A stretch of DNA of 64,000 nucleotides, taken from positions 162,759 through 226,758 of the forward strand of contig NMRA01000568.1 of assembly GCA_002633005.1 (NCBI GenBank). Direction: 5' to 3'. Under the pieces are notes generated by a model. The model saw only the letters and a list, made by a program, of their open reading frames with translations. It did no database searches and had not been told where the DNA came from. This DNA is from Phoronis australis. Its lineage: Eukaryota > Animalia > Phoronida. Below, piece after piece: positions 34,391-62,260 of this stretch (positions are counted from its first letter, which is position 1; each line of letters begins with the position of its first letter). The position numbers were made by a program, and so were the translations under genes.

Positions 34391-34494
34391 CACGTGTGGG
34401 CACGTGATCTGGCAATCAGTCGCAAAATACATGTACAGGTATATAAAATTGAGACGGCTCAGCAAGGACTCTATTCTGCTTCAGCAGCACCATG
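34391..34494 (+). promoter_or_regulatory. Core promoter of the Cys-module gene: two E-boxes, TATA box, Kozak ATG
   Basis: CACGTG at 34391 and 34401, TATATAAAA at 34440-34448, GCACCATG with ATG at 34492. Confidence 0.75.
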
Positions 34495-34549
34495 AAGTCG
34501 TTTGCACTACTTGCACTATTCGGCGTCTTGTCTGCCGCGGTGTGCTCAG
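34492..34549 (+). CDS. Exon 1: signal peptide MKSFALLALFGVLSAAVCS
   Basis: Met-Lys, hydrophobic core, small residues at the cleavage region; phase-1 donor CAG|GTAATA at 34550, in frame with the next exon. Not in the ORF track. Confidence 0.85.
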
Positions 34550-35334
34550 GTAATACCTGTGGAATAGAGTAACTTACATGTAGTGTTCAGACAGAATGTC
34601 TTTTGTTATTCAGTTTTGGAGTGCCTATCGAAATCGGTTCCGTTATGAGTGCCATTTCCTTGAATTGACATATGTTTGGGACCAAAAAAACACAATTGCT
34701 TCTGGTCTGTGTTTCTTAGACCAATGTACATTTGTATGTGTGAGTGTACGAAAGAGGTGAAGTGGTGTGCGAAGTTTTTCACAGCTTCAGCGGTGCACTC
34801 GACTGTACTCCTGTCGACAAGGTCGGAGAGCACTTGGCTGTAATGTCTAGTTCTTAGTAATGCCTCAACCCGTGAATGTTGACACTCAACTTTGTTAAAA
34901 ACAACCTTTTTTGAAAAGTGAGGTGCATTTTTCGAAATCAATTGTAAATCGACCAGGTCCAACAGTTCGACTTCCCTTTATTAACCTCCAGGTAAAGCTA
35001 CATCCGGGTATGATTTTTACCATAGGTTATCTTCTTTAGTGGAAACAACATTGACGCGTTACTAAATAAAGGTCTGGCTTCATAAAATAGTGAACAAAAT
35101 AATTCTATTATTAAATACCGTTTTGTCTTAATGTAACTAATGAGTAAATTTGGAAGATGATGCGTTCTTAATACATATCAGATATTTACGAATAAACACC
35201 ATTGATGAGTCAAGTTTATACTTTTGCTCATATTGACGTATTATAATTTTGTTGTAATGCTCAAAGGAATCTATGTGCAGCAATGCGCTACCGGAATATT
35301 ACTGCAAGCTTATCGCCTGTGAGTGCTATTTCAG

Positions 35335-35604
35335 TGGCATCGGCTGTCGTCAAGTGGAAAATGGCGTTGCAAGAGATCCACAGCGAAGAAGACTTGGAAG
35401 GCATCGAGGACTTTTTGAAGTGCGCAGCTAAATGCCTGGGTGAGACCGCTATGGCCATATTTAAAGACTGCAACTTCAATATGACATGCTGGAAGAAAGC
35501 AATCATGGGCCGAGCTGGCGGTCAGGCTTTCATCTGCGCAGTCAAGTGCTTCGACTTGAGGACACGAGATGCCGCACTTGTCCTTCTCGACCACAAACCT
35601 GCCG
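35335..35604 (+). CDS. Exon 2: acidic pro-region plus six-Cys module 1
   Basis: Acceptor TATTTCAG, donor CCG|GTAAGA, phase 1-1, 270 nt. EEDLEGIEDFLKCAAKCLGETAMAIFKDCNFNMTCWKKAIMGRAGGQAFICAVKCF. Confidence 0.88.
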
Positions 35605-36023
35605 GTAAGAATAAAAACTTCACGTACCGTTTTTATGCATTTTTGTTTTCAAAAAGTTAGAACTCGGACTGAGTTTCAGCAGTCGAAAGCCATAACTATA
35701 ATCATGTGCTTGCGTTTTTTGCCGGTGCAACCCAATGTCGCTCTACGGTGGCAGCCATTTTGTTGGTGCACCGTCAGAAATTCAAAACGGAACTAAAAAA
35801 GCATGCATTCATTTGTGTCTATTATAAAAAATCGACACCATGTTGTAAAGCAATCACCGGAAACAAAATCTGGATAAATTGGTGTGCCGATCAAAATTCG
35901 CTTTTTCAAGTTTGTAACCAAACTAACGAGGTTCTTTGGTTATTACCCTGTATTGCGGCAGTGTGTTACTACTCTGACTAATAGTATGTCACTGACATTT
36001 TGTGGCGGGAAATATCATTTCAG

Positions 36024-36182
36024 CCCACTGCCTGATTACGACGGAAAACCCCCCTAATTTAAAGGATATTATTGGCGAGAAAAATGATTTTCTGCGAATT
36101 CGCCCCTCCAGATTAGTACCGTAAAACCATGTGGTCGCTGTCAAATGCTTTGCAGTCAGAGCTAAATCTCAGTCAATGGTTG
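36024..36182 (+). pseudogene. Relic module exon with internal deletion and stop
   Basis: Acceptor CATTTCAG, donor G|GTAAAG, 159 nt, phase 1-1. Reads ..GEKNDFLR..*NHVVAVKCFAVR, matching both ends (DFL, AVKCF) of module 1; TAA at 36122. Confidence 0.5.
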
Positions 36183-38659
36183 GTAAAGTAATTTAAGTCT
36201 ATTTAACTGGGCCCTGGATTCAGCGAAGGTCTGACACAACGGCGATTATTGGGGATTTGTAATGAAATAACAAATACACAACGAAGTTTATTGTTTTATA
36301 ACTCTGGTCAAAGCTATCAGCGTAAAAACGTCTATCTCATTAAACAGTAATCAATAAAACGCGTTTTCGGCCGTAATAACGACAATATGTCTTTGAGATC
36401 TGCTGGTGCTCACGTTGGTTACAGTTGCAGCGCCCTCGTGTGACGAGGTTCTGACCCAGGGTGTGGAAACGTAAAAACTCTTGCCAAGCACAAAAATTCC
36501 TACCGCAGTACTTTAACCCTAGTTGCTCTCAGTCTCATATTTACTACTGACAGATGTAGTACAAGAGAGCGAGAACACATTACATGTGCGTAGTTGTGGT
36601 GAAACTGACTGAGTGTGATAATTTTGTCCATGGTAAGATTTTTCCGGTGTGTGGTAAGGGAGCACTCTCGTGCTAACAGCTGATTTCCAAAGTATGGCTC
36701 TGTACTTGCCGTACATTGTAACTAAACAGGGTTACTTTTTCCTTTCAGTCTAAAATAGTAATAATATTAATGTTTCTTTTTGCAACGGGCGTGACACTTC
36801 GGTAAAATCATTAGAAACGCGTTATACAGCAAAAGCATTTTCAGTACAAATATTCTTTCACAACCAGTTTCGTTGCACTCCCTACACATACACGACAGGT
36901 AAGTCACTGAAAAGACCATAGTTGGTGTTTCATTTTCATGTATTTGCCACGAACGCACCTGTCCACTGATTCATCTTAACTACATGTAAACTTATTATCA
37001 ATTTCGCCCAGGATTTGTAATAGAAGCAAAAAGAAATCTCAACGATGTTTCGCACTAGCAACCTCCGCATTTTATCACGAGATCGGTATTCACCAAGACT
37101 CCGTTTTGTTTGTTTCGTGGTAGACAAACAAGGTATCACACGCATGCGCACGCGAGCACGCGTACACTGGGTGTAATAAGAGCCCACCTGATGAAATTTA
37201 ATGTAGTCGTTATTAAAAAAAACAATACTTAAATAAATCGGGGTATTTAGAATTTTTCCTTGTTGGTCACTTCTAAACTTGTCTGACATTATTTTTACAT
37301 GTATGCAAATTTTCAAGGCTAATTATTTTGGTTCACTCATTTAGCGTTAAACACAAGAGAGCAAAGGAGGCGAGAAACGGCGGGGAAAGTCTTCGAGGGT
37401 TTCATAGATCCTTGCTGTTCCTCAGTCGATCGTGCTTTGATGGGAATGCGTACATTCATTTGTTTGACCGTTTGCTCATGTTTTTATAGAGTAACTCAAT
37501 TCCAAGGGGACAGCGTGCTCAGTCAATAAAATTATACAATTACAAGAAGTTTATTCGAGTCAATGAAACGATGTTAACAATGAAAATATAATATAGAAAA
37601 ATAAGATACCCACAAGAATTTACTAGTGATGTAGTTTGCTAGATCACTGCCACTTTCAAACGTTGGTCAGAACCTCATGGATATATGGTATAGTCGCTTC
37701 GGAAACAAGGGCGATGATATCAACATCTGTTTTGACGTCTGGACCGATTGTTGCGAATCGTTGATCAATGTAAAATTCAGCAGTGGTCGCTAGAGTGAGC
37801 CTTGGTCGAGAGTTATTCTATGAGAAAACCGAAAGGTTTAAGAGGTTTTTGATAAAAATCCATGCAAGTAAGTCCCTTCTATCCGGTTACCGTTGANNNN
37901 NNNNNNNNNNNNNNNNNNNNNNNNNNNNNNNNNNNNNNNNNNNNNNNNNNNNNNNNNNNNNNNNNNNNNNNNNNNNNNNNNNNNNNNNNNNNNNNNNNNN
38001 NNNNNNNNNNNNNNNNNNNNNNNNNNNNNNNNNNNNNNNNNNNNNNNNNNNNNNNNNNNNNNNNNNNNNNNNNNNNNNNNNNNNNNNNNNNNNNNNNNNN
38101 NNNNNNNNNNNNNNNNNNNNNNNNNNNNNNNNNNNNNNNNNNNNNNNNNNNNNNNNNNNNNNNNNNNNNNNNNNNNNNNNNNNNNNNNNNNNNNNNNNNN
38201 NNNNNNNNNNNNNNNNNNNNNNNNNNNNNNNNNNNNNNNNNNNNNNNNNNNNNNNNNNNNNNNNNNNNNNNNNNNNNNNNNNNNNNNNNNNNNNNNNNNN
38301 NNNNNNNNNNNNNNNNNNNNNNNNNNNNNNNNNNNNNNNNNNNNNNNNNNNNNNNNNNNNNNNNNNNNNNNNNNNNNNNNNNNNNNNNNNNNNNNNNNNN
38401 NNNNNNNNNNNNNNNNNNNNNNNNNNNNNNNNNNNNNNNNNNNNNNNNNNNNNNNNNNNNNNNNNNNNNNNNNNNNNNNNNNNNNNNNNNNNNNNNNNNN
38501 NNNNNNNNNNNNNNNNNNNNNNNNNNNNNNNNNNNNNNNNNNNNNNNNNNNNNNNNNNNNNNNNNNNNNNNNNNNNNNNNNNNNNNNNNNNNNNNNNNNN
38601 NNNNNNNNNNNNNNNNNNNNNNNNNNNNNNNNNGCAAATGCTTCCAACCCGACAAAATG

Positions 38660-38698
38660 TTGGGCCCCCCCCCTTGTGATATCCTAGATCCGCCACTG
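38660..38698 (+). repeat. 3' end of a CAGTGGCGGAT-family element next to a gap
   Basis: CCCCCCCTTGTGATATCCTAGATCCGCCACTG. Confidence 0.6.
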
Positions 38699-39487
38699 AC
38701 TATGCCGCCACTTTTTTAAGCTAGTGGTTCACCTTCTCAAAGGCGATATTTTGCTGTTGCTTTGGCAAGATCTTTCAACCTGCCGGCAAATAAATGTGTG
38801 TTTTTATTTCCTTCCACCACAAGGTCTTTAAGAAATTGTCATTCGTAGCCAAGGTGGTAGACTGCACCCGCCAGCATATGAAACTGGTTTTTCTCCTTTT
38901 GTGTGAACCAGGGCAATTACTGCATTAGCGATGTATCCAATGCCAAAATAAACCAATGAAACTATCGTGGACTAAAACTGGTGTTTTTTCTATCAAATTG
39001 GCCTCCGAAATTGAATTCTCCATGAAAAAAATTTGTCATTGTCGTTCGTTACAGGGGAAAGACGATAAATATTAGCCAAATACGATGTCATTGATGTTCT
39101 TACCAAGGGAAGTGTGTTGACTGTAATGTCGGATACACAATTGGTTTATGAGCGTCAACAGAAGATCGCAAGAACGCTTTAACGATAAAAACTTGTTACC
39201 TGATCCTGGAAACTCCTTTCGTGTGGAGTTGAAACTGTACACTCTACAGTTTTGACTATACCATAAAACTACTCGTGTTAAAAACCCATGGAAAGCAGAT
39301 AGGGACACATCTATAAAGTCGACCTGGCGCATTAATTTGATAGAGTTTCATTCACACAATCCGAGAAGAAGGCGTTAAGTGAACGGTTTTCCTCTGTTTG
39401 ACAAATACCATGCAAACTCATGAAATATGATGTCGCTTTCGTAAACTGCAACGATGATACATTTCTCGCATGTGCATTCGACATAAA

Positions 39488-39592
39488 TTGTAACAATTTC
39501 GTAAAATGTAACAACTTGATGCGTTTTAGGAGAAGCCTAGCAACGTAAAATATAACAATGGCACAATTGTTACATTTTACGAAATTGTTACA
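39488..39592. repeat. Short inverted-repeat element
   Basis: TGTAACAATTTCGTAAAATGTAACAA mirrored by TTGTTACATTTTACGAAATTGTTACA. Confidence 0.75.
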
Positions 39593-39851
39593 TTTTACGG
39601 CGTATACTGTAATTGATGGCTTCCTTTCATTACTTGATTGCTCAATGTCGGATCCTTCACGAGATACACATTTAAAATATAAAAATACGACTGTAGTCAA
39701 CACTTAAAGAGAAATTTAGAAACGTGTAAATGTGCGTTTGGTTCGTCTTAACATCAAATTCTGCCTCTGTCTTCGTTCGCCACACGCTTTACTAATTCCA
39801 TCCAATGTAGAATGGGAATCTTTCTAGTGTTAACCAGTGCACGTTTTGCAG

Positions 39852-40067
39852 GCTATCGAACCACCTGCTACGAAAAGGGGAATGAATACAAACTAGTTAC
39901 CGGCACGGGCTGCGAGAATTTTACCCAAAGGAACGTGTTTAACAACGTGTTCGGTTTGCTCCAATGTCCTAAAGGGCTTCAGTTTAACGTGAGACCATGT
40001 GTGTGCGATTACCCGTACCGAACCAGGTGCGCCCTGCAGATAGACAATCAAGAAAATCTTCCAGCTT
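39852..40067 (+). CDS. Candidate exon: chitin-binding type 2 (CBM14/peritrophin-A)-like domain
   Basis: Acceptor TTTTGCAG (phase 1). CYEKG..GCENFTQ..CPKGLQFNVRPCVCDYPYRTRC fits CPxGLxFN..CDY/W. Probable phase-1 donor T|GTATGC at 40068 (216 nt). The expected third Cys is absent. Confidence 0.7.
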
Positions 40068-40749
40068 GTATGCGAATCTTGCTTGTTTTAGCGTCAGCGT
40101 TGTTTCAATTCGAAAGAATTTTAGGTGATCATTGAACCTTCCTTGTTATACAATAGGTCCATTCTGCATTACATATGTGCTTCAAGCCGAGTCTCATTTT
40201 GCACTGATGCGCATGCTCGAATTTGTGCAAAATTTGCCGTCTGGCAGAAAACACTCGATGCACGTGCAGGTAACCGGTTATTTTGTCTGGCAACACTCAT
40301 TTTGCATAGATCGAATTACAGGCGATTTGTGAGCCAATAAATCTGTTACGTAACTGTTGTACAAAAACCAAGTATATTTGAATGAAATGTAATTCAAGGT
40401 TTATGTTGAAGTTTCCACTCTTCTCAAGCTTTGTAGTCAACCGCGTAGACAAGAACATTTGCTTGAGTTTTAATTTTCAATCTCATCTTTTTATTGCATC
40501 TGTGTTTCTATTTTGCTTATTTTTGCTTTGCTGAACACGTTTACAACATAGCAAGTTCTGTGCTGCTATTGCAGCAAACTCATTTCATTGAGGTAGGCAT
40601 GCTAAAGATGTTCAAAAGAATTATTGACCGAAACGTCGTGGCAATGTTTATGAGCAAGACTTGGACTTAGATAAACACAAAGATTTTAGAAGTGGTATAT
40701 ATGCTTTGAAAATTCCCATGATAACGGGAGGTTTAATGGATTGTCTTAG

Positions 40750-40950
40750 CTATTGTTTTTGTTGTTGTTTTTGTAATAGTAGTAGTAATAGCACTAATAA
40801 TGGGAATAACAGTAATAGTTGCTGCTGTTCTTGTTTTTGGTGTTGTTTTTGTAATAGTAGTAGTAGTAATAGCACTAATAATGGGAATAATAGTAATAGT
40901 TGCTGCTGTTCTTGTTTTTGGTGTTGGTTTTGGTGTTGTCATTTTTGTTG
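40750..40950. repeat. Low-complexity TGT/TAG/TAA tract with an ~80-bp tandem duplication
   Basis: TGTAATAGTAGTAGTAATAGCACTAATAATGGGAATAA..TGCTGCTGTTCTTGTTTTTGG occurs twice. Confidence 0.85.
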
Positions 40951-40998
40951 TTGATATCGCTATTGAACCCTAGATAAATGTACGCTTGCGTCGAATAG

Positions 40999-41229
40999 GT
41001 CTTGTGGCCGGAACAAACACAGAAGTCGAACTGCCCGACTTCCTGAAGTGTCTGGCTAAATGCCTTGGGAAGTCGTTGGCTGAAATCGAACAGTGGTTCA
41101 ATGAGTGTGGGAACAACAAAAAATGTTGGGCGAAAAAAGTTGGCTTTACGGGACTAAAGTGCGTTGGCAGTTGCATCATGTTTGATGATGAAACCAGTGA
41201 CGCCACATCCTTCAATGCAATCAAGTTAG
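40999..41229 (+). CDS. Six-Cys module 2 exon
   Basis: TAG acceptor, G|GTAAGT donor, 231 nt, phase 1-1. DFLKCLAKCLGKSLAEIEQWFNECGNNKKCWAKKVGFTGLKCVGSCI. Confidence 0.88.
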
Positions 41230-41728
41230 GTAAGTCATTGAATCAGATATTCAATACCGTAAATGAAATTCGACGGGCTATGTCATATCTGGGCTTAATT
41301 GCTTCTCTCCACGTCACGATAATGCCACCAAAATTAATTTATCTTAACAGATTGTCGAAAGACCGAGCCCAGTTTACAGGAAGTTGTGTGTGGCATGCAC
41401 TCTTTCCACACTGCACGTTTCAAAACCCGATACATGGATATCTAGAGTTATCATTCTTGAGTTAATTCCCTTTTTGAGTATACCTTTTACATGTATAACT
41501 CCTGTCGTATTGGACTGTCTAATCGCTTTGAGCTATCAATCACGCGTTCCTATGCTTCCTTTTCTTACAATTAGAAAATAATACTTACATTATTACAGTT
41601 GCAATCGGTATTTTGAAAATGTTATTGTTGTTGTTGATGATGTTATAGGTTGATATTGTTGTGGTTGTCATTTTTGTTGTTGTTGTCGCTAACTCAACCC
41701 TGGATAAATATGCACTTCCGTCGGTTAG

Positions 41729-41962
41729 GGGGTGTGGCCGGTAAAAACACAGAAGTTGATATGCCAGACTTCGTGAAGTGCCTGGCTAAATGCCTTGGGA
41801 AGTCGTTGGCTGAAATCGAACAGTGGTTCAATGAGTGTGGGAACAACAAAAAATGTTGGGCGAAAAAAGTTGGCTTTAAGGGACTAAAGTGCGTTGGCAG
41901 TTGCATCACGTTTGATGATGAAACCAGTGACGTCACATCCGTTGAGCACGAGATCAGATCAG
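41729..41962 (+). CDS. Six-Cys module 3 exon
   Basis: 234 nt, phase 1-1; core nearly identical to module 2; weaker donor GTCCGT. Confidence 0.78.
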
Positions 41963-42691
41963 GTCCGTCATTAAAAAGATATACAGGTTGTCTAATTCTC
42001 GATATCAGTGCAAATTAAGAGCTAACTATTCTTGTCAGCTGTTCTTAGGTAAAACGCAATAAAGGTAACATCCCTGCAAATTAAACGAATATAAACCTTG
42101 CCTCCGTGCAAGAAAGGAACTTTATTTAAACCACTTTTCTCGTCTGTCCATGTACATGTATGTCGGTATGGCAGCCATTGAGAGAAAATTGTCAAGAAGA
42201 GTGTTGCACGCACCGCTACGGTACGTATAATTTTACGCGGACTCGTAATCAACATCCACAGTCTCTGTTTATTTTTTAGAAATGAAAAAACTCGAGTACA
42301 AATTCTACCGACGTTAAACACGAGGGATGTAATTCGACAGAAATGGGGGGGCAGTCCTTTGATCTTGTGAACATTTTTTATTTATCAATGCTAAACACCT
42401 GAAGATGTCCAAAGAAATAATTGACTGTAGCGTCGTGGCAATGTAAAAAGGCTACACCATAGTGTAGATAAACCAATAGATTTTAGAATGGATATAAATG
42501 TTTGGAATTCCTTCATGATAACGGGAGTTTTAATTTAATGTCTTTGCTATTGTTTTTATTTTTGTAGGCGTAGTAGTAGTCGTAGCAGCAGCAACAGCAA
42601 AAGCAACAGCAGTAGTTCTTGTTATTGTAGTTATTTTTTGTCAGATGTTGTCGTTAAGTGGATCCAATGTTCGCTTTAATTCGTCCAATAG

Positions 42692-42925
42692 GTATTGTGG
42701 CCGCAACAAACGCAGAAGTCGAACGCCCCTACTTGCTGAAGTGTCTGGCTAAATGCCTTGACATGTCGTTGGATGAAATCGAAGAGTTGTTTGCAAAGTG
42801 CGGAAGAAGAAGGCAATGCTGGTGGAATAAAGTTGGTGTGGAGGCAGTAAAGTGCCTCCGCAGTTGCATCAAGTTGGATGATGAAAGCAGTGACGTCACA
42901 TCCGTTGAGCATGAGATCAAACCAG
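42692..42925 (+). CDS. Six-Cys module 4 exon
   Basis: AATAG acceptor, CAG|GTCAGT donor, 234 nt. YLLKCLAKCLDMSLDEIEELFAKCGRRRQCWWNKVGVEAVKCLRSCI. Confidence 0.85.
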
Positions 42926-43679
42926 GTCAGTCATTATGCAAGAATATATGAAATTTGAGGGTTGTCTAATTTCTGGGTGCAATAGTAATGCCCGACGTCA
43001 TCAAATTTTAAGCGAGTTAAATCTTGTCAGAAATTATCAGGTAAATCGCAAAGAAGGTAACATCCCTGCAAACTAAAACGAATATAAACCTTGGCTCCGT
43101 GCAAGAAACGAATTTTATTTAAACCACTTTTCTCGTCTGTATGTCGGCATGGCAGTTATTGAAAGAAAATTGTCAAGAAGTGTGTAGCATGCACCGCAAC
43201 GGTACGTATGATTTTACGCGGACTCGTAATCAACACCCACTTTTTTCTGTTTATTTCTTAGTCATGAAAAAAACTTGAGTACCAATTCTATCGACGTTAA
43301 ACACGAGGGATGTAATTCGACAGAAATGGGGGGCAGTCCTTTGATTTTGTGAAGATTTTTTATTTATAAATGCTAAACACCTGAAGATGTCCAAATAAAT
43401 AATAGACTAAAGCGTCGTGGCAATGTAAATAGGCTGCACCATAGTGTAGATAAACCAATATATTTTAGAATGGATATAAATGTTTGGAATTCCTTCATGA
43501 AATCGGGAGTTTTAATTTAATGTCTTTGCTATTGTTTTTGTTTTTGTTTTTGTAGCCGTAGTAGTAGTCGTAGCAGCAGCAACAGCAAAAGCAACAGCAG
43601 TAGTTTTTTTTATTGTAGTTATTTTTTGTCAGATGTTGTCGTTAAGTGGATCCAATGTTCGCTTTAATTCGTCCAATAG

Positions 43680-43913
43680 GTATTGTGGCCGCAACAAACG
43701 CAGAAGTCGAACGCCCCTACTTGCTGAAGTGTCTGGCTAAATGCCTTGACATGTCTTTGGATGAAATCGAAGAGTTGTTTGCAAAGTGCGGAAGAAGAAG
43801 GCAATGCTGGTGGAATAAAGTTGGTGTGGAGGCAGTAAAGTGCCTCCGCAGTTGCATCAAGTTGGATGATGAAAGCAGTGACGTCACATCCGTTGAGCAT
43901 GAGATCAAACCAG
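43680..43913 (+). CDS. Six-Cys module 5 exon (protein identical to module 4)
   Basis: Same splice sites as module 4; one synonymous TCG/TCT difference seen. Confidence 0.82.
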
Positions 43914-44661
43914 GTCAGTCATTATGCAAGAATATATGAAATTTGAGGGTTGTCTAATTTCTGGGTGCAATAGTAATGCCCGACGTCATCAAATTTTAAG
44001 CGAGTTAAATCTTGTCAGAAATTATCAGGTAAATCGCAAAGAAGGTAACATCCCTGCAAACTAAAACGAATATAAACCTTGGCTCCGTGCAAGAAACGAA
44101 TTTTATTTAAACCACTTTTCTCGTCTGTATGTCGGCATGGCAGTTATTGAAAGAAAATTGTCAAGAAGTGTGTAGCATACACCGCTACGGTACGTATGAT
44201 TTTACGCGTACTCGTAATCAACACCCACTTTTTTCTGTTTATTTCTTAGTCATGAAAATAACTCGAGTACCAATTCTATCGACGTTAAACACGAGGGATG
44301 TAATTCGACAGAAATGGGGGAGCAGTCCTTTGATTTTGTGAAGATTTTTTATTTATAAATGCTAAACACCTGAAGATGTCCAAAGAAATAATCGACTAAA
44401 GCGTCGTGGCAATGTAAAAAGGCTACACCATAGTGTAGATAAACCAATAGATTTTAGAATGGATATAAATGTTTGGAATTCCTTCATGAAATCGGGAGTT
44501 TTAATTTAATATCTTTGTTATTGTTTTTGTTTTTGTAGCTGTAGTAGTAGTCGTAGCAGCAGCAACAGCAAAAGCAACAGCAGTAGTTCTTGTTATTGTA
44601 GTTATTTTTTGTCAGATGTTGTCGCTAAGTGTACCCAGTGTTTGCTTTAATTCTCCAGTAG

Positions 44662-44895
44662 GTCTTGTGGCCGCAACAAACGCAGAAGTCGAACTCCCCT
44701 ACTTCCTAAAGTGTCTGGCTAAATGCCTCGATATGCCGTTGGATAAAATCGAACAGTTGTTTAAAAAGTGCGGGAGAAGACGGCAATGCTGGTTTAATAA
44801 ACTTGGTGTGGAGAAAGGAAAGTGCCTCCGCAGTTGCATCAAGTTGGATGATGAAAGCAGTGACGTCACATCCGTTGAGCATGAGATCAAACCAG
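44662..44895 (+). CDS. Six-Cys module 6 exon
   Basis: Tandem acceptor CAGTAG (could start at 44659), donor GTCAGT. YFLKCLAKCLDMPLDKIEQLFKKCGRRRQCWFNKLGVEKGKCLRSCI. Confidence 0.85.
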
Positions 44896-45751
44896 GTCAG
44901 TCATTAGGCAAGAATATGTGAAATTTGAGCTAAATCTTGTCAGCAATTCTCAGGTAAAGCGCAATAACCTACTTCCGTGCAAAATGCGTTTTCTCCTGCA
45001 CAAACATGTATTCGAAATACAAACAGCTGCTCAGAAGAGTAGTAGGATGAAACGTAAAGCGCTTATTGCTACCCGTCAGTATGGAGTACAAGATTCCGGT
45101 TTGGCGTTGATTAATTTATCAAAAATTAACTTTTTGTTAAAGAAAATTGCCAGGAAGTGTCGAAAGCGCTGCAACGNGCAAGAAACGAATTTTACTTAAA
45201 CCACTTTTCTCGTCTGTATGTCGGCGTGGCAGTTATTGAAAGAAAATTGTCAAGAAGTGTGTAACATGCATCGCTACGGTACGTATGATTTTACGCGTAC
45301 TCGTAATCAACACCCACTTTTTTCTGTTTATTTCTTAGTCATGAAAAAAACTTGAGTACCAATTCTATCGACGTTAAACACGAGGGATGTAATTCGACAG
45401 AAATGGGGGGAGCAGTCCTTTAATTTTGTGAAGATTTTTTATTTATAAATGCTAAACACCTGAAGATGTCCAAAGAAATAATCGACTAAAGCGTCGTGGC
45501 AATGTAAATAGGCTACACCATAGTGTAGATAAACCAATAGATTTTAGAATGGATATAAATGTTTGGAATTCCTTCATGAAATCGGGAGTTTTAATTTAAT
45601 GTCTTTGTTATTGTTTTTGTTTTTGTAGCTGTAGTAGTAGTCGTAGCAGCAGCAACAGCAAAAGCAACAGCAGTAGTTCTTGTTATTGTAGTTATTTTTT
45701 GTCAGATGTTGTCGCTAAGTGTACCCAGTGTTTGCTTTAATTGTCCAGTAG

Positions 45752-45985
45752 GTCTTGTGGCCGCAACAAACGCAGAAGTCGAACTCCCCTACTTCCTAAA
45801 GTGTCTGGCTAAATGCCTCGATATGCCGTTGGATAAAATCGAACAGTTGTTTAAAAAGTGCGGGAGAAGACGGCAATGCTGGTTTAATAAACTTGGTGTG
45901 GAGAAAGGAAAGTGCCTCCGCAGTTGCATCAAGTTGGATGATGAAAGCAGTGACGTCACATCCGTTGAGCATGAGATCAAACCAG
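45752..45985 (+). CDS. Six-Cys module 7 exon (protein identical to module 6)
   Basis: Same sites as module 6; the unit follows a single-N join at 45177, so it may be an allelic assembly copy. Confidence 0.72.
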
Positions 45986-48215
45986 GTCAGTCATTAGGCA
46001 AGAATATGTGAAATTTGAGCTAAATCTTGTCAGCAATTCTCAGGTAAAGCGCAATAACCTACTTCCGTGCAAAATGCGTTTTCTCCTGCACAAACATGTA
46101 TTCGAAATACAAACAGCTGCTCAGAAGAGTAGTAGGATGAAACGTAAAGCGCTTATTGCTACCCGTCAGTATGGAGTACAAGATTCCGGTTTGGCGTTGA
46201 TTAATTTATCAAAAATTAACTTTTTGTTAAAGAAAATTGCCAGGAAGTGTCGAAAGCGCTGCAACGGTATGGTGAATGCCAAATCCTCGGAATCTAACGT
46301 AGCAGGCCAACGTTTATGTCATTGAGTTGGTACAACGTATTATTTTACGCCGACTGGTAATCAACATTATCTTTTTCTGTTGTTTTTTCTGTTTTGAAAC
46401 AATAGAGTACTAAACAACGATAATCCTTTATGCGTAGGGTCAAAATTCCAATTTATCGACGTCAGTATTTGTGTTGCCGGTCTTTTTACCTCAACAAAAC
46501 GGAAGAAGCCGAGCTTCCCGTGCTTATCAGGGGCCAGCCAAATGCCTCGTACAAAAACAATATTTTTACATGTTTTGTGTGAAATAAGTTGAGAATTCCG
46601 GTAAGCTTCGTAACTTGCTGGGCAGACCACTTCACGGAATACTTGCGAAATAGTCAATTGTCCTAATAGAGCCATGCTGTACGTCTTGGCGTTCAAGACA
46701 GATGAGTGGTCGCCAGGTTTGGCTGAAACAAGCTAGAAACGAACCAGTAAGGGGAAATAATAACAGTTGTTACGTAGCAAAAAGCGAGCACAGCTGCTTT
46801 TTTGTGATACTTAACATTGAAGTTATTGACTTACTCAGTGGCTGACCCAGGATCATGGGCAAATGCACTTTGGCATCGGATCGACTTGCATAATAGGCAC
46901 GTCCTATTCCTACAGTACAGCAATGCAAAGTAACTGAGCGTGGCGTCTGGACCACATGGTCCTTTTTTTAAACTGGGTCAGATACACTACACTTCTAGTT
47001 TAACTGACTGGACATCAAACAGTTTTTCAATGTCTGTCTATAACCATGCTTGTTCAATAAAGTAAACAAAGTTCCCTTCGTGATAATAGATTTGCCACCA
47101 TCCTGTACAGTACACTTAACGGCATAGTGTATACTGTGGTTCCGGGCTCGGACTGCAGGGAATTTACTCAGAGAACCGTAAAGATTAACGAATCAGACGT
47201 ACACCCAACACTGCCCGACAGGTCTGCAGTTTAACGTCGACGTTTCTGTATGTGATAAATAGAAGCAGGACAAAATGCACGGCCACGTGACCTATTCGTC
47301 ACCAAACCACGTCATTTCAAATTGCCAATCGTTGAACTTCATTTTAACATACAATTATTTCACAACAGGAAAGATAAAAGTAACGTACAGCTGTACATGT
47401 TTTAAGTTTTTAAGCAGATCTTCCTTTATACATGTACATGCTGTGTTGAAAGTCATGCTTTGTAAGTCTTCTTTGACGTTTTCTCATTCACGCAACACGG
47501 CGGACATATGGAGAAACCCCACGTTGGCAAATGTTTACCAAAGAAAGTGCCGTTTCCAGCAAAACAGGGTAAAAATTTAATAACTCCAAAGGGTCTACTC
47601 TCTGCACTCGAAACTGGACTCGAAAATTGACCAGTTGCATGACAAGCTTACTGAAACTAACACATTTGTTAATGCACTAAAGTGACTGGTTAAGTTTTGA
47701 TTCCTAGTTGAGTCTAAGAATATACTTTGGGCTCTGGTTAATGTATGAATTTAAACAAAACTCCATTTTGGTTTGAGCAGTACTAGTGTGCAGCAAACAA
47801 AATTTGACCTGCATTGTACATTGTAGTTGTGTGACGAGTGGCAGAAGAATGGAGGTCTTAGTTTCACGAACTGTTTGTATGCTCAAAAATGCGCTGTCCT
47901 TTTAAATGATAAATCAAACACTACTAGTACATTATAAAAAATGACAACAAATAATAGTTTAGTCGTAAGGTATCATTATAAGCAAACGTATTAAATAAAT
48001 TCGGACAAATCTGTTTAAGAGATAGCGCTCTCTGTGCCTATATGTATATTCACAGCCGGGTGCTCCATTGAAACCATTTTCCGAACATCATGTGCAAGGA
48101 AAAGTCCTGCACGCTCGTTTAAAAGTTTGAGATGAGATCTGTGGTGTCTCGATATCAAAAAATACACCTGCTCGTCCCTTACTATACTATTGTACAATTT
48201 TCACTTATTTTACAG

Positions 48216-48442
48216 GCGACGCAAATGTTTCTGAAGAGTGTTTAGCCAAATGCCTGGGAGGATCTCAGCCAGATGTCGCCCAGTTGAGCAGAAAATGTTA
48301 CAGCGTCATCAAGTGCTGGATGAGAGAAGTTGGTGTCAAGGGATTCCTTTGCGCCGCCTCTTGTTTGAGCGCCAAAGAGAAGACTCCTGCGGAGAGTTAT
48401 TCGTTTTCCGCGACGTTGACTGCAAGCGCAAACAAGTCATAA
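48216..48442 (+). CDS. Six-Cys module 8 exon, ending in a stop
   Basis: Strong acceptor TTATTTTACAG, phase 1. DANVSEECLAKCLGGSQPDVAQLSRKCYSVIKCWMREVGVKGFLCAASCLSAKEKTPA...NKS*. The ORF track shows only another frame. Confidence 0.85.
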
Positions 48443-49543: not shown

Positions 49544-49740
49544 GATAATCCAGCTAACATACACATGTATACATGTCATGCTGAAGAATTCAGATCGTAC
49601 AAATCATCACCGACCACCGTCTATTTCACCCTATAATTCATACTATAGGCCACGAATAAATTCACTGCCAATATGCATTCGTTTTAATTCTTTGTGTTTA
49701 GTAATGCGATGTTTTGACCTGAAAATAAACATTTTTTGAT
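49544..49740 (+). other. Candidate terminal exon A: phase-1 acceptor, immediate stop, 3' UTR and polyA signals
   Basis: TTCATTCTTCAG|GA TAA; AATAAA at 49655 and 49724; the same arrangement is kept in the paralog at 61929. Confidence 0.6.
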
Positions 49741-53530: not shown

Positions 53531-55030
53531 AATAGCGGAGTTGCAACGCCGCCATATTGGAAATGGGTCAGAATGTTGCATTGTGGTTAAGCCGGTAAAC
53601 AAGTACGTCGGCAAGCGTGGGGGCGAACCGGCCACAGGGAGGTTATACGTGTTGTGTGCCTGGCATGCTATAATACCAGTTAGCGAAATAAAAAATTTAG
53701 TTACTACCTGTTTCCCAAGGATCAAGAACTGCGTTAAACATGGGTCAGAGACATCGGTAGAGCTGGTAGCAAAGGCCGACTTCGTGAATTCTTTCCGACT
53801 TCGTAGCATAAAGTGTGCAGCGCTCATTTTGAGGGCGGCAAGAAAACGTATCTTAGAAACTGCCCAACAATATCTCCCTTCAAAGAAACAGTAACAAATA
53901 CTCCANNNNNNNNNNNNNNNNNNNNNNNNNNNNNNNNNNNNNNNNNNNNNNNNNNNNNNNNNNNNNNNNNNNNNNNNNNNNNNNNNNNNNNNNNNNNNNN
54001 NNNNNNNNNNNNNNNNNNNNNNNNNNNNNNNNNNNNNNNNNNNNNNNNNNNNNNNNNNNNNNNNNNNNNNNNNNNNNNNNNNNNNNNNNNNNNNNNNNNN
54101 NNNNNNNNNNNNNNNNNNNNNNNNNNNNNNNNNNNNNNNNNNNNNNNNNNNNNNNNNNNNNNNNNNNNNNNNNNNNNNNNNNNNNNNNNNNNNNNNNNNN
54201 NNNNNNNNNNNNNNNNNNNNNNNNNNNNNNNNNNNNNNNNNNNNNNNNNNNNNNNNNNNNNNNNNNNNNNNNNNNNNNNNNNNNNNNNNNNNNNNNNNNN
54301 NNNNNNNNNNNNNNNNNNNNNNNNNNNNNNNNNNNNNNNNNNNNNNNNNNNNNNNNNNNNNNNNNNNNNNNNNNNNNNNNNNNNNNNNNNNNNNNNNNNN
54401 NNNNNNNNNNNNNNNNNNNNNNNNNNNNNNNNNNNNNNNNNNNNNNNNNNNNNNNNNNNNNNNNNNNNNNNNNNNNNNNNNNNNNNNNNNNNNNNNNNNN
54501 NNNNNNNNNNNNNNNNNNNNNNNNNNNNNNNNNNNNNNNNNNNNNNNNNNNNNNNNNNNNNNNNNNNNNNNNNNNNNNNNNNNNNNNNNNNNNNNNNNNN
54601 NNNNNNNNNNNNNNNNNNNNNNNNNNNNNNNNNNNNNNNNNNNNNNNNNNNNNNNNNNNNNNNNNNNNNNNNNNNNNNNNNNNNNNNNNNNNNNNNNNNN
54701 NNNNNNNNNNNNNNNNNNNNNNNNNNNNNNNNNNNNNNNNNNNNNNNNNNNNNNNNNNNNNNNNNNNNNNNNNNNNNNNNNNNNNNNNNNNNNNNNNNNN
54801 NNNNNNNNNNNNNNNNNNNNNNNNNNNNNNNNNNNNNNNNNNNNNNNNNNNNNNNNNNNNNNNNNNNNNNTCGGCTGAAGGGTCGGCTGTGGGGTCGCCT
54901 TATGAGTCGGCACTGCGGGCGGCTGCCGGTCGGCTAATTTTTAGCCGACCGGTCGGCTAATTTGCCGACCGGTCGACGGCCGGTCGTCGACCAATTTCCG
55001 ACCGGTCGGCCAAAAATTCGTGATGTGTGC
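53531..55030 (+). mobile_element. THAP-bearing DNA transposon remnant spanning a gap, with a GTCGG/CCGAC palindromic tract
   Basis: Starts AATAG where homology to the 62225-62430 paralog stops; contains a THAP relic; 54871-55015 is nested CCGACCGGTCGG repeats. Continuity across the gap is unproven. Confidence 0.5.
53641..53880 (+). pseudogene. THAP domain pseudogene
   Basis: GYTCCVPG/CYNTS*RNKKFSYYLFPKDQELR*TWVRDIGR..HKVCSAHFEGGKK..PTI: full C2CH pattern with one frameshift and three stops. Confidence 0.88.
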
Positions 55031-56931: not shown

Positions 56932-58142
56932 CATCATTTTTCCCAGGCACCAGAAGCTGGACTATCGGCAGTGTTTCAACAAGGGATTCTCAAACGGCCC
57001 TAAAGGCATCATACCAGGGAAATTCGGGAACTCACCATTCCAATATTTAAATTTACACCTGGGATACGCAAGCACCACTTTACTGTAGGACTCATTTACG
57101 TACTGTATTATCCTGTTCCCAAGATACACGACACAGAGATATACATGTAAGGCGGAAATGCTTCACTTTTTGTTCAATTGTGACTGAAGTTCGAGGCGCA
57201 CCTTTATTTTCTATCATGATGTGGACCTCAGTGCCTAATATATATTAATTGTATGGTTGGTAACCTGCTTGATAATTTGCCATAGGTACATGTACAGTAG
57301 TGTTGAAGGGAGTGTTCTTGTAAAAGCATACTCCGAGCCTTACATCGGTGGATACTTCGTTAGCATGTGTGTTACCGTGGAAACCCCGTTACACTCAGTG
57401 GTGATGTCGTTTGTTTATATTTTTTGTTTTGACACGGGTCTTGAAACATCAAGTGTTTTTACTTTGAAGTTAGCCATTTTACCCGCTGATGTAGGCTGAC
57501 AATGCCTTGAATTAACTGCTGATAGTTGATTAAATAAAATGTGGATGGTTTACGAGATCTGGGAAGCACCAGAAGAAACTACCCTAAATGGACTCTGTAT
57601 TCAATAGTCTTCTTGACACAGACCAGAGCTAATGATTTTTTGGCCTTACACAGCCAATTCAGTATTGCAAAAAGTTCATATTGAAATTTAAGCTCAATGT
57701 CTTACTTAAAGTATGCATTGATTTAAAAAGGCTTCTATTTTTTATTTCTTGTATATAAAATATAGAAAAAGATTCCCCAATAGCGGCTAAAGTTATATAA
57801 TCGCACCTCAGTACATGTATTTCTTGTTTATTTGTTTAACTGCCTGTATAGATTCTGATATGTTGAAAATTTCAGGTTCACCATTTTTTGATGACAAAGC
57901 AAAAGATGACATCGTATCGTAGTGGAGAGTTTTCAAGGAAATTGTGAGATTGATATGTAATCATAAAATCTCTATAGACGTTGTGCTAGTCATGTTACTC
58001 AAAGAGCACATACATTGTAAGTTGAGTTGAAACAGAAATCGTTTAAGCAGTTCGTACACGAAATTTGATTGTTAGAGAATATGTGGTTTGGCTTCATGTA
58101 GTTCTAATATTGTGCTTTTTGTACATTACTCTGATTTGAAAG

Positions 58143-58330
58143 TCAGAAATGGTTTCCTGAACTGCATGGCCAAATGTTTGGATAAATCGCTGGCTGACAT
58201 TGAACAAAGGTACAACGAGTGTGGCGCTGATGTAAAGTGTTGGGCGAGAAAGGTTGGCTTTGAGGGATACACATGCGCCGCGAAATGTATTCCGGTTACC
58301 TATCCTGTGGAATTGCCAGCTGAAGTTTAA
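58143..58330 (+). CDS. Six-Cys module 9 exon (stop just before the relic donor)
   Basis: AAG acceptor (phase 1) after a CTAAT branch-like site. GFLNCMAKCLDKSLADIEQRYNECGADVKCWARKVGFEGYTCAAKCI..PAEV*; donor GTACGT at 58353. Confidence 0.75.
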
Positions 58331-59627
58331 GTTGAAAAAAAGTCTGTGACAAGTACGTTGTTTATTGTACAATGTTGAAATTTACCAATGTGCCATACTA
58401 GGAAGACATGCAATAGCAAAATACTGTAGTACAAATGCTGTGACATTTTCTGCAATTTGAGTGGACGAAGTTAATTTTTTAGTCATTGGTCTATCAAAAG
58501 TTGAATTAATCTGAGCGATTCCGGATGTCCTGTAATCATCACTGAATCAAACACCAGTGTTCAGCCACAGCAAAGGCAAAGCACTCCAAATTTCGGAAAT
58601 CACAGAGAGATTATTCCTTTAGACATGGCGTATCGCTTCAATTAGTACATTTTGTTTATGTTCATTTTTAGTTCTTTAATCAAACACGTTAGTGAGTTTT
58701 TTGTTGAAACTGGATGTTTACCGATAATAACAGAACAGGATAATCAACATTATTTTCCCTTCCAGACACCTGCTGGTCACACCTCGAGACCTGTATTTAT
58801 TCTAAGTCTGATGATTCAGTTCGAACGCTATCTCGAACCCAGCATTTCCTGCTTTCCGCAAGACAAACAATGGATACTTTAATTTCATCCATAGAAACGT
58901 GCACCAACATTCTCAAAAATCCATTTGCTTGTTAAAGTATTCTCAGTGGTGAAATTACATTACACAACAATTATAGTGTAGACGTACATTCTACCATAAC
59001 TGTTTTTAAAAACAGAAGCTGTGATGCCTTATTTCTATTTGTACAAAACAGGTTGCAAAATGCATTGGGCACAGACCAGAGCTAATTATTTTATTTTTAG
59101 CCTTACACAGCGAATTCGGCATTGCAAAAAATCATCTTTAAATTTAAGCTCAATGTCTTATTTTAAGTATGCATTGATTTAAAATAGCTTCGATTTTTTA
59201 TTTCTTATATATAAAAATTTCGAGAAAGGTCGTCCAGCAGTGGCTAAAAAGATACAAATGTATAGTATCACATCAGTATTTTTGTTTGTTTGTGTACATG
59301 TATATGTCTGTATATTTTGCCAACACCTAGGATTCAGAGATGTTAACATTATCGTATTCATCAATAACTGACGGAAGAGAAAAAGATTACAGAGTATCAT
59401 GGAGTAGGCATTTCTGTGAACATTTGAGCTTGATACATGTATTTAGTGATAAAATCTCTATAGCCGTTGTGTTTATCATGTCACGCAAACAGCACACGAA
59501 TTGTGTTGCAGTAGAAAGTTTTTCAATACATGTAGTTTGTAGATGAAATTTGATTGACAGATAATAAGTGATTTGTGCGTTTGTAGTCCTAATATTGTGC
59601 TTTTTATACATTACTCTGATTTGAAAG

Positions 59628-59833
59628 GTGGCAACAATTTCCTGAAGTGCATGGCCTCATGCCTGGACAAAACGATGGCAGACATTGAACAATGGTACAA
59701 CGAGTGTGGTACTGATGGAAACTGTTGGTTGAGAAAGGTCGGCTTCATGGGCCTCACATGTGCCGGACGTTGTACGCTTAACACGGGATCTCTGGAATTG
59801 TCCGCTGTAGTTAAAGTTGAAAAAAGTCTGTGA
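59628..59833 (+). CDS. Six-Cys module 10 exon (stop just before the relic donor)
   Basis: NFLKCMASCLDKTMADIEQWYNECGTDGNCWLRKVGFMGLTCAGRCT..KSL*; donor GTACGT at 59837. Confidence 0.75.
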
Positions 59834-61242
59834 CAAGTACGTTGTTTTCTAGATAATGTTAAAATTTACCGGTTTGTCATACTTAGAAGACTTGCAATAG
59901 CAAAAGAGTGTAGTATAAAGTTGTGAAGTTTTCTGGGATTTGCACGGAGAAAGTTAATTTTTGTTAGACATTGCACTGTCAAAGTTGAATTAATCTAAGT
60001 TATTCCGGATGACCTGTATCACTGAATCAATCACCAGTGTTCAGCCAAAGCAAAGACAAAGCACCCGAGAGTTCGGCAATTACAGAGATATTATAACTTA
60101 AAACATTGCGTTTCGTTTCAATTAGTTCTTTGTGCATTTGGTAATGTTTAATTGTTTAGTCAAAAATGTTTGTGAGTTTTTTTGAAGCTGGAGGTTTACC
60201 GATAATAACAGAACATAGTATGCAACATTATTTTTCTTTCTCGACACCTGCTGGTCACCACGCAACTGGCCCTTATTCCAAATCTGAAGATTGAGTCCGA
60301 ACTGTTCCTCAAAGCCCGCGCTTCCTGCTTTCCGCAGGACAAACAATGGAAACTCTTCATCCATACAAATGAGCACAAGCATTCTCAAAAATCCATTTGT
60401 CTGTTATTCCTTTCTCAGTGGTGAAATCACATTACACATCAATTATAGTCTATACTACGGAGATTTTGTTGGGCAGATCACTTCACGGAATATCATCAAA
60501 AATCAATCGTCCTAATAGGTATATGCAGTCCGTCTAGGCGTGCGAGTCAGTTGAGAGGTCGCCAGGTTTGAAAGCAACAAGCTAGGAACCAGTAAGAGGA
60601 GAGGATAATAGCTGTTACCTAGCAACAAGCGAACACAGCTGCGTTTTTGTGTTAGTTAACATTGAAGTTATTGACTTACTCAGTGGCTGACCCAGGATCA
60701 TGGGCAAATGCACTTTGACATTAGACATACATACTTAGGCGCATCATATTCATAAAGTACAGCAATGCATGGGTTCTGGACCACATGGTCCATCTCTGAA
60801 TCCGGGTCGGATACTAGTTTACAGGACAGAACGTAAAGCAATGTTTCAATTTATGTTCTTTGAAAAATGTCTGTCAATAGCAATCTTGCTCAATAAATTA
60901 AAGAAAGCCCCGTTTGTGATTCTAGAGTGGACACCATCGTGTAGAAGTAACGGCGTGGTGTTTACTGTGGTTCTGGGCTCGTTCTGCACGAAATATACTC
61001 AAAGAACCGAAAAAAACAATCAGTTGTACACCCAACGCTGCCCGACAGATATGATATTTGACGTCCACGCTTGTGCGTGTGACTATAACTTGAGGGCAAA
61101 ATGCACTTCCATCCTACCTACTGGTCACCATGTGCCGTCATGAAAATTTTCAAATTGCCAATCGTTCAAATACATTCAAGGACAACATTTTGAAATTGCC
61201 TATTGTATGGCAACAATTCAGTTTAACATTTTTTTTTTCACA

Positions 61243-61656
61243 ACAGGAACGAATAAAGTAACGTACATGCAAAGTTTTTAAGCAGATCTCCCTTTATACA
61301 TGCCGTGTTGAAAGTCTACGGCCGTCTACAATTGCTTTAAGTCAACATAGTGCAGATCATAATAAGTGCTTTAAACTGCGTGCAGAATTATTCCAATACG
61401 AGAGTCTTTGAAACAGGAGTAACAAGAGCTGGTATTTTGACTAAACGCGATCAGATTTTCAAAACAGGAACGAATAAAGTAACGTACACGCAAAGTTTTT
61501 AAGCAGATCTCCCTTTATACATGCCGGTCTACAACTGCTTTAAGTCAACACAGTGCAGATCATAAGTGCTTTAAACTGTGTGCAGAATTATTCCAATACG
61601 AGAGTCTTTGAAACAGGAGTAACAAGAGCTGGTATTTTGACTAAACGCGATCAGAT
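61243..61656. repeat. ~200-220-bp tandem duplication
   Basis: ACAGGAACGAATAAAGTAACGTACA...GACTAAACGCGATCAGATT occurs twice. Confidence 0.9.
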
Positions 61657-61928
61657 TCTTTTCGGTGACCTCGAGAAAGGTTTAATGACACGATGTAAAG
61701 AGTTGGTAGGTCTGACGTAAGTTGAATTGTAATTGTTTTGTGAAATAGCGTTGCCGTTGTATTGATAGGTGCGTTAGAAAGTCTTTAAATCCCGCTGTTT
61801 GGATCAAAAATGAATGCAGTACGACCTAAGTGACAAATTCGTGTTCTATTTTATACCAAAATGCTTGTTAAATACATTCATTTAAATTACATAGTGGTTT
61901 TCGTCTTTATTGCCAATTAATTCTTCAG

Positions 61929-62195
61929 AATAACGTCGGACCGAACGTACATGCATGAACGTAAATACACGGAAGCATCAGCTGGCTTAAAAGCTGATAT
62001 GCCATGCTGAAAAATCCAGATCATACATATCACCACTGATCACCGTCAATTTCACACACCCTATAGATCATACTATAGGCTACGACACTACAAATTTCCA
62101 TTCGATTTAAATCTTTTCTCGTGGTAATTTACTTGTTTCCAGTATGTTAATTTTATTACTATGATTTGACCTGAGAATAAACAGTTTCTGAGGTT
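61929..62195 (+). other. Candidate terminal exon B
   Basis: TTAATTCTTCAG|AA TAA (phase 1, then stop); AATAAA at 62176. Confidence 0.6.
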
Positions 62196-62260
62196 ATTTC
62201 TTTCGAATTTTGATTTTGCATGATCTTTGAATCCCTGTTCTGATGCCCATTTAGCACTCC

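Follow-up and report, generated by a model that had tools for sequence, protein, structure and literature searches.

Introduction

Multi-domain saposin precursors are cut into pore-forming, membrane-active units (PMC11542183), and the Ciona protein VCBP-C, which combines two immunoglobulin (Ig) V domains with a C-terminal CBM14 domain, binds bacteria and is tethered by its CBM14 to the chitin of the gut (PMC6109156). Among the nemertean toxins, neurotoxin B-IV is a two-helix hairpin with eight cysteines (Cys) and the parborlysins are proteins of 9.4-10.1 kDa (PMC6410017); acanthaporin works by a His pH switch (PMC5198042), and six-Cys peptides named in the literature are aurelin, penaeidins, big defensin and tachystatins, none of which is shown with the layout reported here (PMC10608444). 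This article describes a locus of the phoronid Phoronis australis that codes for an array of six-Cys modules, located in a 64,000-nucleotide stretch of contig NMRA01000568.1 (positions 162,759 to 226,758, forward strand; assembly GCA_002633005.1). The whole stretch is referred to as the window, and coordinates are those of the window.

A previous interpretation based on the letters of the DNA alone (the sequence-only reading) had proposed a secreted polyprotein made for defence, venom or signalling. Considering RNA, homologues, predicted structure and charge together, the explanation we favour, at roughly an even chance, is that the locus would encode a secreted innate-defence precursor in which cationic amphipathic cores, placed between acidic spacers, attack microbial membranes.

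The Module Array and Its Gene

The module follows the pattern CxxxC-x11/14-C-x5-CW-x10/14-CxxxC. A six-frame scan of the window, which is AT-rich eukaryotic DNA with assembly gaps, detected ten copies, all on the + strand, compared with none in 50 order-2 Markov shuffles. This bears out the ten one-exon modules proposed earlier, including the absence of the leading F/L-x-K motif from module 8. Each module is about 45 residues long and occupies one exon, with 42-43 residues from the first to the sixth Cys. The spacing between Cys is 3/14/5/11/3 in nine of the ten; module 1 has 3/11/5/15/3. The positions from first to sixth Cys, obtained by the pattern scan, are:

35421-35549, 41049-41174, 41779-41904, 42742-42867, 43730-43855, + strand: modules 1 to 5
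44712-44837, 45802-45927, 48239-48364, 58163-58288, 59648-59773, + strand: modules 6 to 10

The gene built around modules 1 to 8 comprises the following elements:

34391..34450, + strand: putative core promoter, single copy in the window, with CACGTG boxes at 34391 and 34401 and a TATA box near 34440 (from sequence)
34492..34549, + strand: coding part of exon 1, with ATG at 34492, a hydrophobic signal-peptide-like stretch and a phase-1 donor (sequence and RNA joint)
35335..35604, + strand: exon of the pro-region and module 1, divergent spacing, net charge +5 (scan; RNA depth 43-141)
37897..38633, no strand: assembly gap (run of N) in the intron 3' of module 1 (sequence)
39852..40067, + strand: CBM14-like (chitin-binding type 2-like) exon with six Cys (weak Pfam CBM_14 match; RNA joint to module 2)
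40999..41229, + strand: module 2 exon, core net +5 (scan; RNA depth 117-344)
41729..41962, + strand: module 3 exon, core net +6 (scan; RNA depth 105-278)
42692..42925, + strand: module 4 exon, core net +3 (scan; RNA depth low, mainly in run X7)
43680..43913, + strand: module 5 exon (sequence comparison)
44659..44895, + strand: module 6 exon, core net +8 (module 4/5-type donor joined to it in X7 reads)
45749..45985, + strand: module 7 exon (scan, self-comparison, RNA joints)
47090..47306, + strand: second CBM14-like exon, frame-broken in the assembly (RNA joint 47306>48216; tblastn)
48216..48442, + strand: module 8, terminal coding exon with stop, followed by the 3' untranslated region (RNA depth 48-214)

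The TATA box, the ATG, the signal-peptide-like exon 1 and the entry of the modules in phase 1 had been correctly recognised. The coding part of exon 1 is 58 nt long and ends in phase 1, and its signal peptide is predicted from sequence. The eight internal exons (modules 1-7 and the CBM14-like exon) are bounded by AG and GT, have lengths divisible by three and are in phase 1 at both ends; poly(A)-signal-like hexamers occur 3' of module 8, from 48997. Joining exon 1, module 1, the CBM14-like exon and modules 2-8 yields 725 residues with no internal stop. The figure of about 723 given previously would fit the downstream AG at modules 6 and 7, where the acceptors are tandem and reads use the upstream AG. 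The open frame itself stands; the direct junction between module 1 and the CBM14-like exon does not. Record 2 of the RNA contig set X8 contradicts it by carrying 414 nt in frame (138 codons) between the two, so that the 725-residue join is probably incomplete by some 138 residues. These 414 nt were not identified in the window sequence and may reside in the gap at 37897-38633.

Neighbouring modules are closely related: module 3 is 96% identical to module 2, and the core proteins of modules 5 and 7 equal those of modules 4 and 6, respectively. The repeat units of modules 6 and 7 are 98.8% identical in the self-comparison of the window, with an N at the seam, and module 7 may for this reason be an allelic copy of module 6. 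The possibility that the whole tandem array is an assembly artefact was rejected, because reads carry tandem module joints and arrays exist in four other named genomes or proteins. The introns preceding modules 2-7 (40750-40950, 41600-41700, 42560-42650 and equivalents) contain a GTT/GTA/GCA-rich simple repeat of degenerate sequence; it was copied along with each exon and may promote unequal crossing-over.

Transcription and Splicing

Three RNA runs (X5, X6 and X7) and the contig set X8, chosen because they bear the same species label as the DNA (none of the listed runs that contain the stretch is recorded as RNA), were mapped to 34300-49000; about one fifth of each raw run was read, and 15 of 28 splice joints were listed. 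First mates over exons fall nearly all on one strand (in X7, the bin of module 2 has 344 on one and 0.2 on the other) and several intron bins are empty. At least five of the nine modelled junctions are supported by reads among the joints listed. In X5, X6 and X7, respectively, the GT..AG joint from exon 1 to module 1 has 43, 41 and 105 reads, the joint from the CBM14-like exon to module 2 has 40, 37 and 126 (and is also present in X8), the GT..AG joint from a module 4/5-type donor to module 6 has 1, 0 and 22, the joint between module 6/7-type exons has 0, 1 and 12, and that from module 7 to module 8 has 1, 2 and 22. The junctions of modules 2-3, 3-4 and 4-5 were not found as such among the joints listed. 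RNA junction mapping, which had been suggested as a check of the gene model, agrees with stranded, exon-restricted transcription and with five of the nine modelled joints, and contradicts the modelled exit from module 1.

The commoner transcripts differ from the assembly, with ends of module 2/3 type joined back to a module 2-type start (46-156 reads per row), and loose read ends reveal a related but diverged module 9-like exon 3' of module 3. Another joint, 47306>48216 (32, 26 and 74 reads), connects the second CBM14-like exon to module 8, and the reads over this exon are devoid of the insertions that break its frame in the window. Most reads are just 90-95% alike to the window (4056 of 5992 in X7), and diverged alleles, a paralogue or a sister species are on that account indistinguishable. 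Within 39977-40032, 279 reads of X5 and 131-137 of X6 match solely this part of the CBM14-like exon and then continue into other sequence; they point to one more CBM14-like exon that is expressed, which perhaps belongs to the missing part of this gene or to another gene.

Charge and Divergence of the Modules

The acidic linkers described by the sequence-only reading were confirmed: across modules 1-8 the linkers have a net charge of -4 to -6 (-1 for the one containing the CBM14-like domain) and the cores one of +2 to +8. The same contrast is present in Lineus longissimus, where cores range from +1 to +12 and linkers from -2 to -6, and in most of the Owenia and Lingula modules. In nine of the ten window modules, helix 1 has a hydrophobic moment of 0.52-0.68. 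Between modules 5 and 6, the core differs at 18 of 135 nt, the linkers at 1 of 81 and the intron at about 20 of 550 (p 0.002 and 7e-5), and the nine amino-acid changes from module 5 to module 6 add five positive charges. The order of modules in the assembly differs from that in the animals sampled by RNA, which also counts in favour of a defence function.

Predicted Fold and Family Membership

AlphaFold2 returned all-helical models, with three helices from 10 sequences (predicted local distance difference test, pLDDT, 81) and four (2-11, 15-25, 29-36 and 38-50) from 32 sequences (pLDDT 90), in line with the small helical bundle envisaged earlier. The module is predicted to be a compact amphipathic bundle of three to four helices, with the CxxxC motifs in the first and last helix and the third and fourth Cys (C3 and C4) flanking a short loop; nested disulfides 1-6/2-5/3-4, the probable pairing, would be compatible with this layout. 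Five Cys are invariant and the sixth is present in at least 90% of 32 rows.

That the module could not be assigned to a family also held in every search performed. Neither Pfam (over 32 modules as well) nor NCBIfam assigned a family to the module, Rfam gave no match, a PDB sequence search returned nothing at E up to 10 with profiles of 8 and 32 rows, and Foldseek against PDB and BFVD nothing at E up to 0.001. Comparison with 48,161 chains by VIA-align gave best Z scores of 4.6 and 4.2, the background level for a helical bundle, and no saposin, toxin or pheromone fold was among the best 50. The ESM Atlas gave no usable match for module 2, and for the homologue P0017 only leads below 0.8.

Several candidate assignments were discarded. 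The Pfam matches of whole repeat proteins to WHD_ROQ1, RalF_SCD, DUF2119, GAD and DUF5766 are artefacts of summing repeats, with no single significant stretch. DUF4787 (PF16029) matches weakly over the C3-C6 part of 4 of 32 modules (best E 5e-4), with 13.9 bits over profile positions 3-33 of 63, about 30-42 of the 63 positions matched and a cut-off of 27 bits; this is passed only by summing the 13 repeats of P0037, none of which is significant as a single stretch. Saposin-like protein (SAPLIP) membership, raised by the sequence-only reading, was rejected on length and Cys spacing: no module out of 32 matches Pfam SapB, and the module profile scores 12.3 against a true saposin-B, within the range of shuffles (maximum 13.3).

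A literature search by accessions, motifs and topic terms, with most subscription journals outside its coverage, found no description of the module. Two unannotated nemertean mucus peptides of 65 and 69 residues with cysteine framework IX (PMC11768458) may conceivably be an earlier sighting of it.

The CBM14-Like Domains

The exon at 39852-40067 matches Pfam CBM_14 (PF01607) over the full profile with E 0.0044 and 17.6 bits, the gathering cut-off being 22.1. It contains Cys at 5, 20, 38, 49, 51 and 59, including the CxC of CBM14 domains, and nine aromatic residues, and it is 30% identical over 60 residues to the N-terminal domain of the Lingula protein P0035. A third copy, in the 3' duplicate described below, scores 18.3 bits, likewise under the cut-off. 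The label CBM14-like was kept since CBM_14 is the sole family match for both scored copies, and the domains are predicted to bind chitin.

These domains invite comparison with a protein for multivalent recognition, such as an agglutinin, an opsonin or a lipid carrier, that would bind microbial surface glycans or lipids without lysis. In its favour, a CBM14 next to variable domains parallels VCBP-C (PMC6109156), the module sets differ between animals, and the module alignment has a conserved aromatic residue after C4 and a conserved Gly. Nevertheless, no lectin or immunoglobulin family was matched (for Ig, in the nine exon products scanned), and a helical bundle of 45 residues, judging from the model, would leave little space for a pocket. 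A recognition protein is regarded as improbable.

Relatives in Other Animals

A profile of eight window modules was searched against 1.84 billion representatives (E <=0.001) and retrieved 36 related proteins, the sources of 30 of which were looked up in addition to that of an Owenia protein. The hosts identified span at least five animal phyla, namely sponge, nemertean, brachiopod, annelid and tunicate chordates. Module counts in these homologues come from a profile built in part from the proteins counted. Lineus longissimus has a nine-module protein and Owenia fusiformis one with seven; Lingula anatina has four loci with up to 13 modules as well as small proteins of one CBM14-like domain plus module (e.g. 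P0035); the sponge Oscarella pearsei has three proteins with two modules each, and the tunicates Ciona, Clavelina and Styela combine two trefoil domains with two modules. One Ciona record is titled 'integumentary mucin A.1-like'; no record looked up is named after the module, the titles being 'uncharacterized' or referring to other domains. The remaining homologues are ENA, JGI, Logan or eukprot records, some of them, at a guess, from microbial eukaryotes. In P0048 two saposin-B domains are followed by 11 modules, in P0017 two modules are separated by a Lys-rich insert with a net charge of +14 that may resemble linear antimicrobial peptides, and one homologue has nine cores of +5 to +13. Proteins with one or two modules also exist.

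A second search with a 32-row profile retrieved 11 proteins, one of them new, and a search for homologues of near length found nothing. Tunicate and sponge modules are 22-34% identical to window module 2, against 54-62% for those of Owenia, Lineus and Lingula, a difference that points to a lophotrochozoan host. A tree of 94 modules on 50 columns was largely unresolved and gives neither a host assignment nor an order of events. A 19-residue match in the metagenome locus L001, on the strand opposite a 576-residue bacterial open reading frame, was dismissed as chance.

By eye, P0022, P0029, P0031, P0033 and P0067 appear to have another helical domain in common, some 65-80 residues long and bounded by two Cys, for which Pfam gave no match except a weak DUF842 in P0029. 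In the P0002, P0010 and P0014 clusters, several single-module ENA proteins apparently lie on common contigs, which suggests another array with one exon per module.

Fusion partners and hosts bear on what the protein does. Saposin-B, trefoil and CBM14-like domains belong to mucosal or antimicrobial systems, and mucosal or antimicrobial defence is therefore favoured over venom and signalling, so that defence is the part of the original three-way proposal that gained ground. A precursor of venom or anti-predator toxins that target animal cells or ion channels would agree with the nine-module homologue of the toxic ribbon worm Lineus longissimus, with the greater divergence of core than flank in one module pair, and with the nature of nemertean cytolysins, which are Lys-rich, helical proteins with three disulfides (PMC6410017). 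On the other side, no solved toxin was matched by sequence or among the best 50 folds, and none of five module motifs occurs in the supplement of a nemertean toxin paper (PMC10674772). Homologues also occur in a sponge, tunicates, a brachiopod and Owenia. The hosts of the relatives are filter-feeding and tube-dwelling animals, which argues against a dedicated venom; to our knowledge, none of the sponge, tunicate, brachiopod or Owenia hosts is venomous. We consider this alternative very improbable.

A Proposed Defence Precursor and Its Alternatives

In the favoured explanation, symmetric phase-1 exons are spliced into a transcript for what is predicted to be a secreted precursor of at least eight cationic six-Cys modules, acidic spacers and one or more predicted chitin-binding domains. 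The modules would bind and permeabilise anionic microbial membranes, while the acidic spacers would neutralise the cores during secretion. Proteases other than convertases (lysosomal or luminal) might then free single modules, or the intact array might act multivalently, and the CBM14-like domains could anchor the protein to chitinous barriers, for example the gut lining, cuticle or tube. Duplication or loss of whole exons would alter module number and charge.

Several observations weigh against this explanation. The linkers before modules 1-8 have no dibasic site (0 of 8), and release of single modules is consequently not demonstrated; the linkers of homologues are similar (Lineus 0 of 8, Lingula P0037 0 of 12, Owenia 1 of 6). 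Neutral or acidic cores are frequent among the homologues (P0021 -4, P0038 -4 to +6, Lingula P0037 -2 to +4), those of window modules 9 and 10 are only +1 and 0, and the CBM14 matches fall under the Pfam cut-off. Module 2 shares 62% identity with Owenia, 58% with Lineus and 54% with Lingula modules, and identities of 54-62% across phyla are high for antimicrobial peptides. The ratio of nonsynonymous to synonymous substitution (dN/dS) is below 1 in every computable module pair, the excess of core over intron change is not significant between modules 4 and 6 (p 0.14), and such an excess could reflect gene conversion. In module 1 the differences between window and RNA amount to 17 codons among the listed variants, seven of the nine amino-acid changes lying in linkers. 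The membrane activity of the modules is itself a prediction.

The linkers are equally relevant to two other explanations. Against a precursor of water-borne signalling peptides, helical and with three disulfides like pheromones, stands the absence of convertase sites from the window linkers; the fusion partners are not signalling domains, and no pheromone-type structure was matched by sequence or among the best 50 folds. Size and helix content may be like those of ciliate and mollusc protein pheromones, yet we hold this explanation to be the least probable, with hardly any weight. Alternatively, the product may be a matrix protein with a structural, adhesive or surface-active role in mucus, tube, cuticle or a shell organic layer, where an intact array of disulfide-locked helical beads would bind chitin via the CBM14-like domains and coat or cross-link the matrix. 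This would agree with the lack of dibasic sites. It would also suit the long near-identical arrays of Lingula (13 modules), the CBM14-like and trefoil fusions with the mucin-like title of the Ciona record, and the high conservation across phyla; the named hosts make chitinous or mucous coverings. The contrast between cationic cores and acidic spacers, the saposin-B fusion and Lys-rich insert of other homologues and the existence of one- and two-module proteins speak against it. The 48 Cys of the modules group by sixes, suggesting that none is left free within the modules for cross-linking. A matrix protein is the main alternative, though on balance unlikely.

Extending the defence explanation, the module may tentatively be viewed as an ancient 'mini-saposin' domain, a helical, membrane-permeabilising unit of 45 residues and three disulfides distributed from sponges, and probably microbial eukaryotes, to tunicates. 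Its one-exon modules would have been shuffled beside CBM14 or trefoil tethers, arming chitin or mucus barriers, with number and charge varying between individuals; although attractive, this extension is held with less than even confidence. If true, it would add a new host-defence peptide family, and no solved structure represents its fold. Were the modules membrane-active, an old defence-peptide family with modular variation at the exon level would be added to invertebrate immunity; were they structural, they would be a building block not previously described in chitinous or mucous coverings. In either event, a defined domain can be assigned to several uncharacterised records of Lingula, Lineus, Owenia, Oscarella and three tunicates, and the size of 45 residues makes direct synthesis and testing possible.

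The 3' Duplicate and Other Elements of the Window

The sequence-only reading had described a locus of ten modules made as a polyprotein. Modules 1 to 8 are part of the predicted precursor; modules 9 and 10 lie about 10 kb past the stop of module 8, have in-frame stops of their own and belong to a partial duplicate:

58133..58352, + strand: module 9, an orphan copy of the exon in which an in-frame stop precedes the donor at 58353 (scan, self-BLAST)
59618..59836, + strand: module 10, repeating module 9 in tandem but out of phase, with a stop ahead of the donor at 59837 (self-BLAST)
60926..61140, + strand: third CBM14-like stretch, open frame with six Cys, in the duplicate without a module 8 exon (CBM_14 E 0.0026, 18.3 bits)
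60466..62223, + strand: decayed duplicate of the 3' region of the gene, 68-78% identical to 46615-49769 (self-BLAST)

The module 9 unit (57617-58983) matches the module 10 unit (59070-60455) at 75% in self-BLAST, and no second copy of exon 1 is present in the window. The segment from 57.6 to 62.2 kb is read as a decaying partial copy of a 3' end of the type module 9-CBM14-module 8. A (CA)n microsatellite occupies 62272-62370, just beyond the duplicated region.

Mobile elements and repeats were observed elsewhere. On the - strand, 653-5611 is a remnant of a Pao/BEL long terminal repeat retrotransposon with matches to peptidase A17, integrase core and zinc finger, DUF5641 and aspartyl protease, including a 161-nt tandem duplication at 3797-4119. 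A fragmented reverse-transcriptase element on the + strand (13103-14596; RVT_1 E 2.7e-7) is probably a long interspersed nuclear element (LINE). The imperfect inverted repeats at 30608-30765 (81%), 31374-31770 (68%) and 54936-55018 (78%) are probably non-autonomous transposons, miniature or of another kind. A short, GC-rich dispersed repeat has four matching copies upstream of the gene (23898-24063, 25175-25317, 26177-26291 and 32496-32623); the stretch 38634-38698, just 3' of the assembly gap, attracts many unrelated reads on both strands and looks like a repeat of the same kind.

Comparison With Known Systems

The likeness to neurotoxin B-IV suggested by the sequence-only reading was not supported. 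Nemertean B-IV/nemertide beta and cytolysin A-III/parborlysin are, as the locus product is predicted to be, secreted, helical, disulfide-rich and basic, and one host phylum is common to both. However, B-IV has eight Cys in four disulfides and a two-helix hairpin (PMC6410017), whereas the module has six Cys, about 5 kDa, three to four predicted helices and occurs in tandem arrays, and the searches gave no match to B-IV by sequence or fold. Acanthaporin and the circular bacteriocins of saposin-like fold are likewise small, helical and membrane-active. The structure of the circular bacteriocin NKR-5-3B stood at rank 39 of the fold search (root-mean-square deviation 2.5, 44 residues aligned), its Z of 2.9 being at background level. 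Unlike acanthaporin with its His pH switch (PMC5198042), the module has no conserved His.

The saposin precursors (prosaposin, naegleriapore B and Dictyostelium AplE/AplK) have a signal peptide and several small helical domains of three disulfides joined by linkers (PMC11542183), a plan like that predicted here. The domains themselves differ: the saposin-B domain has about 80 residues, and the saposin-B of P0048 has the Cys spacing 2/25/9/25/5 against 3/14/5/11/3 in the module. The saposin fold has four to five helices; the module models have three or four. VCBP-C shares the combination of a secreted CBM14 with an effector or recognition domain; its CBM14 is C-terminal and accompanied by Ig domains (PMC6109156), in contrast to the internal, sub-cut-off CBM14-like domains and the many six-Cys, predictedly helical modules found here. 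The module is an undescribed, widespread domain whose architecture follows known kinds, the saposin-type precursors and the CBM14-tethered effectors, while being a member of neither.

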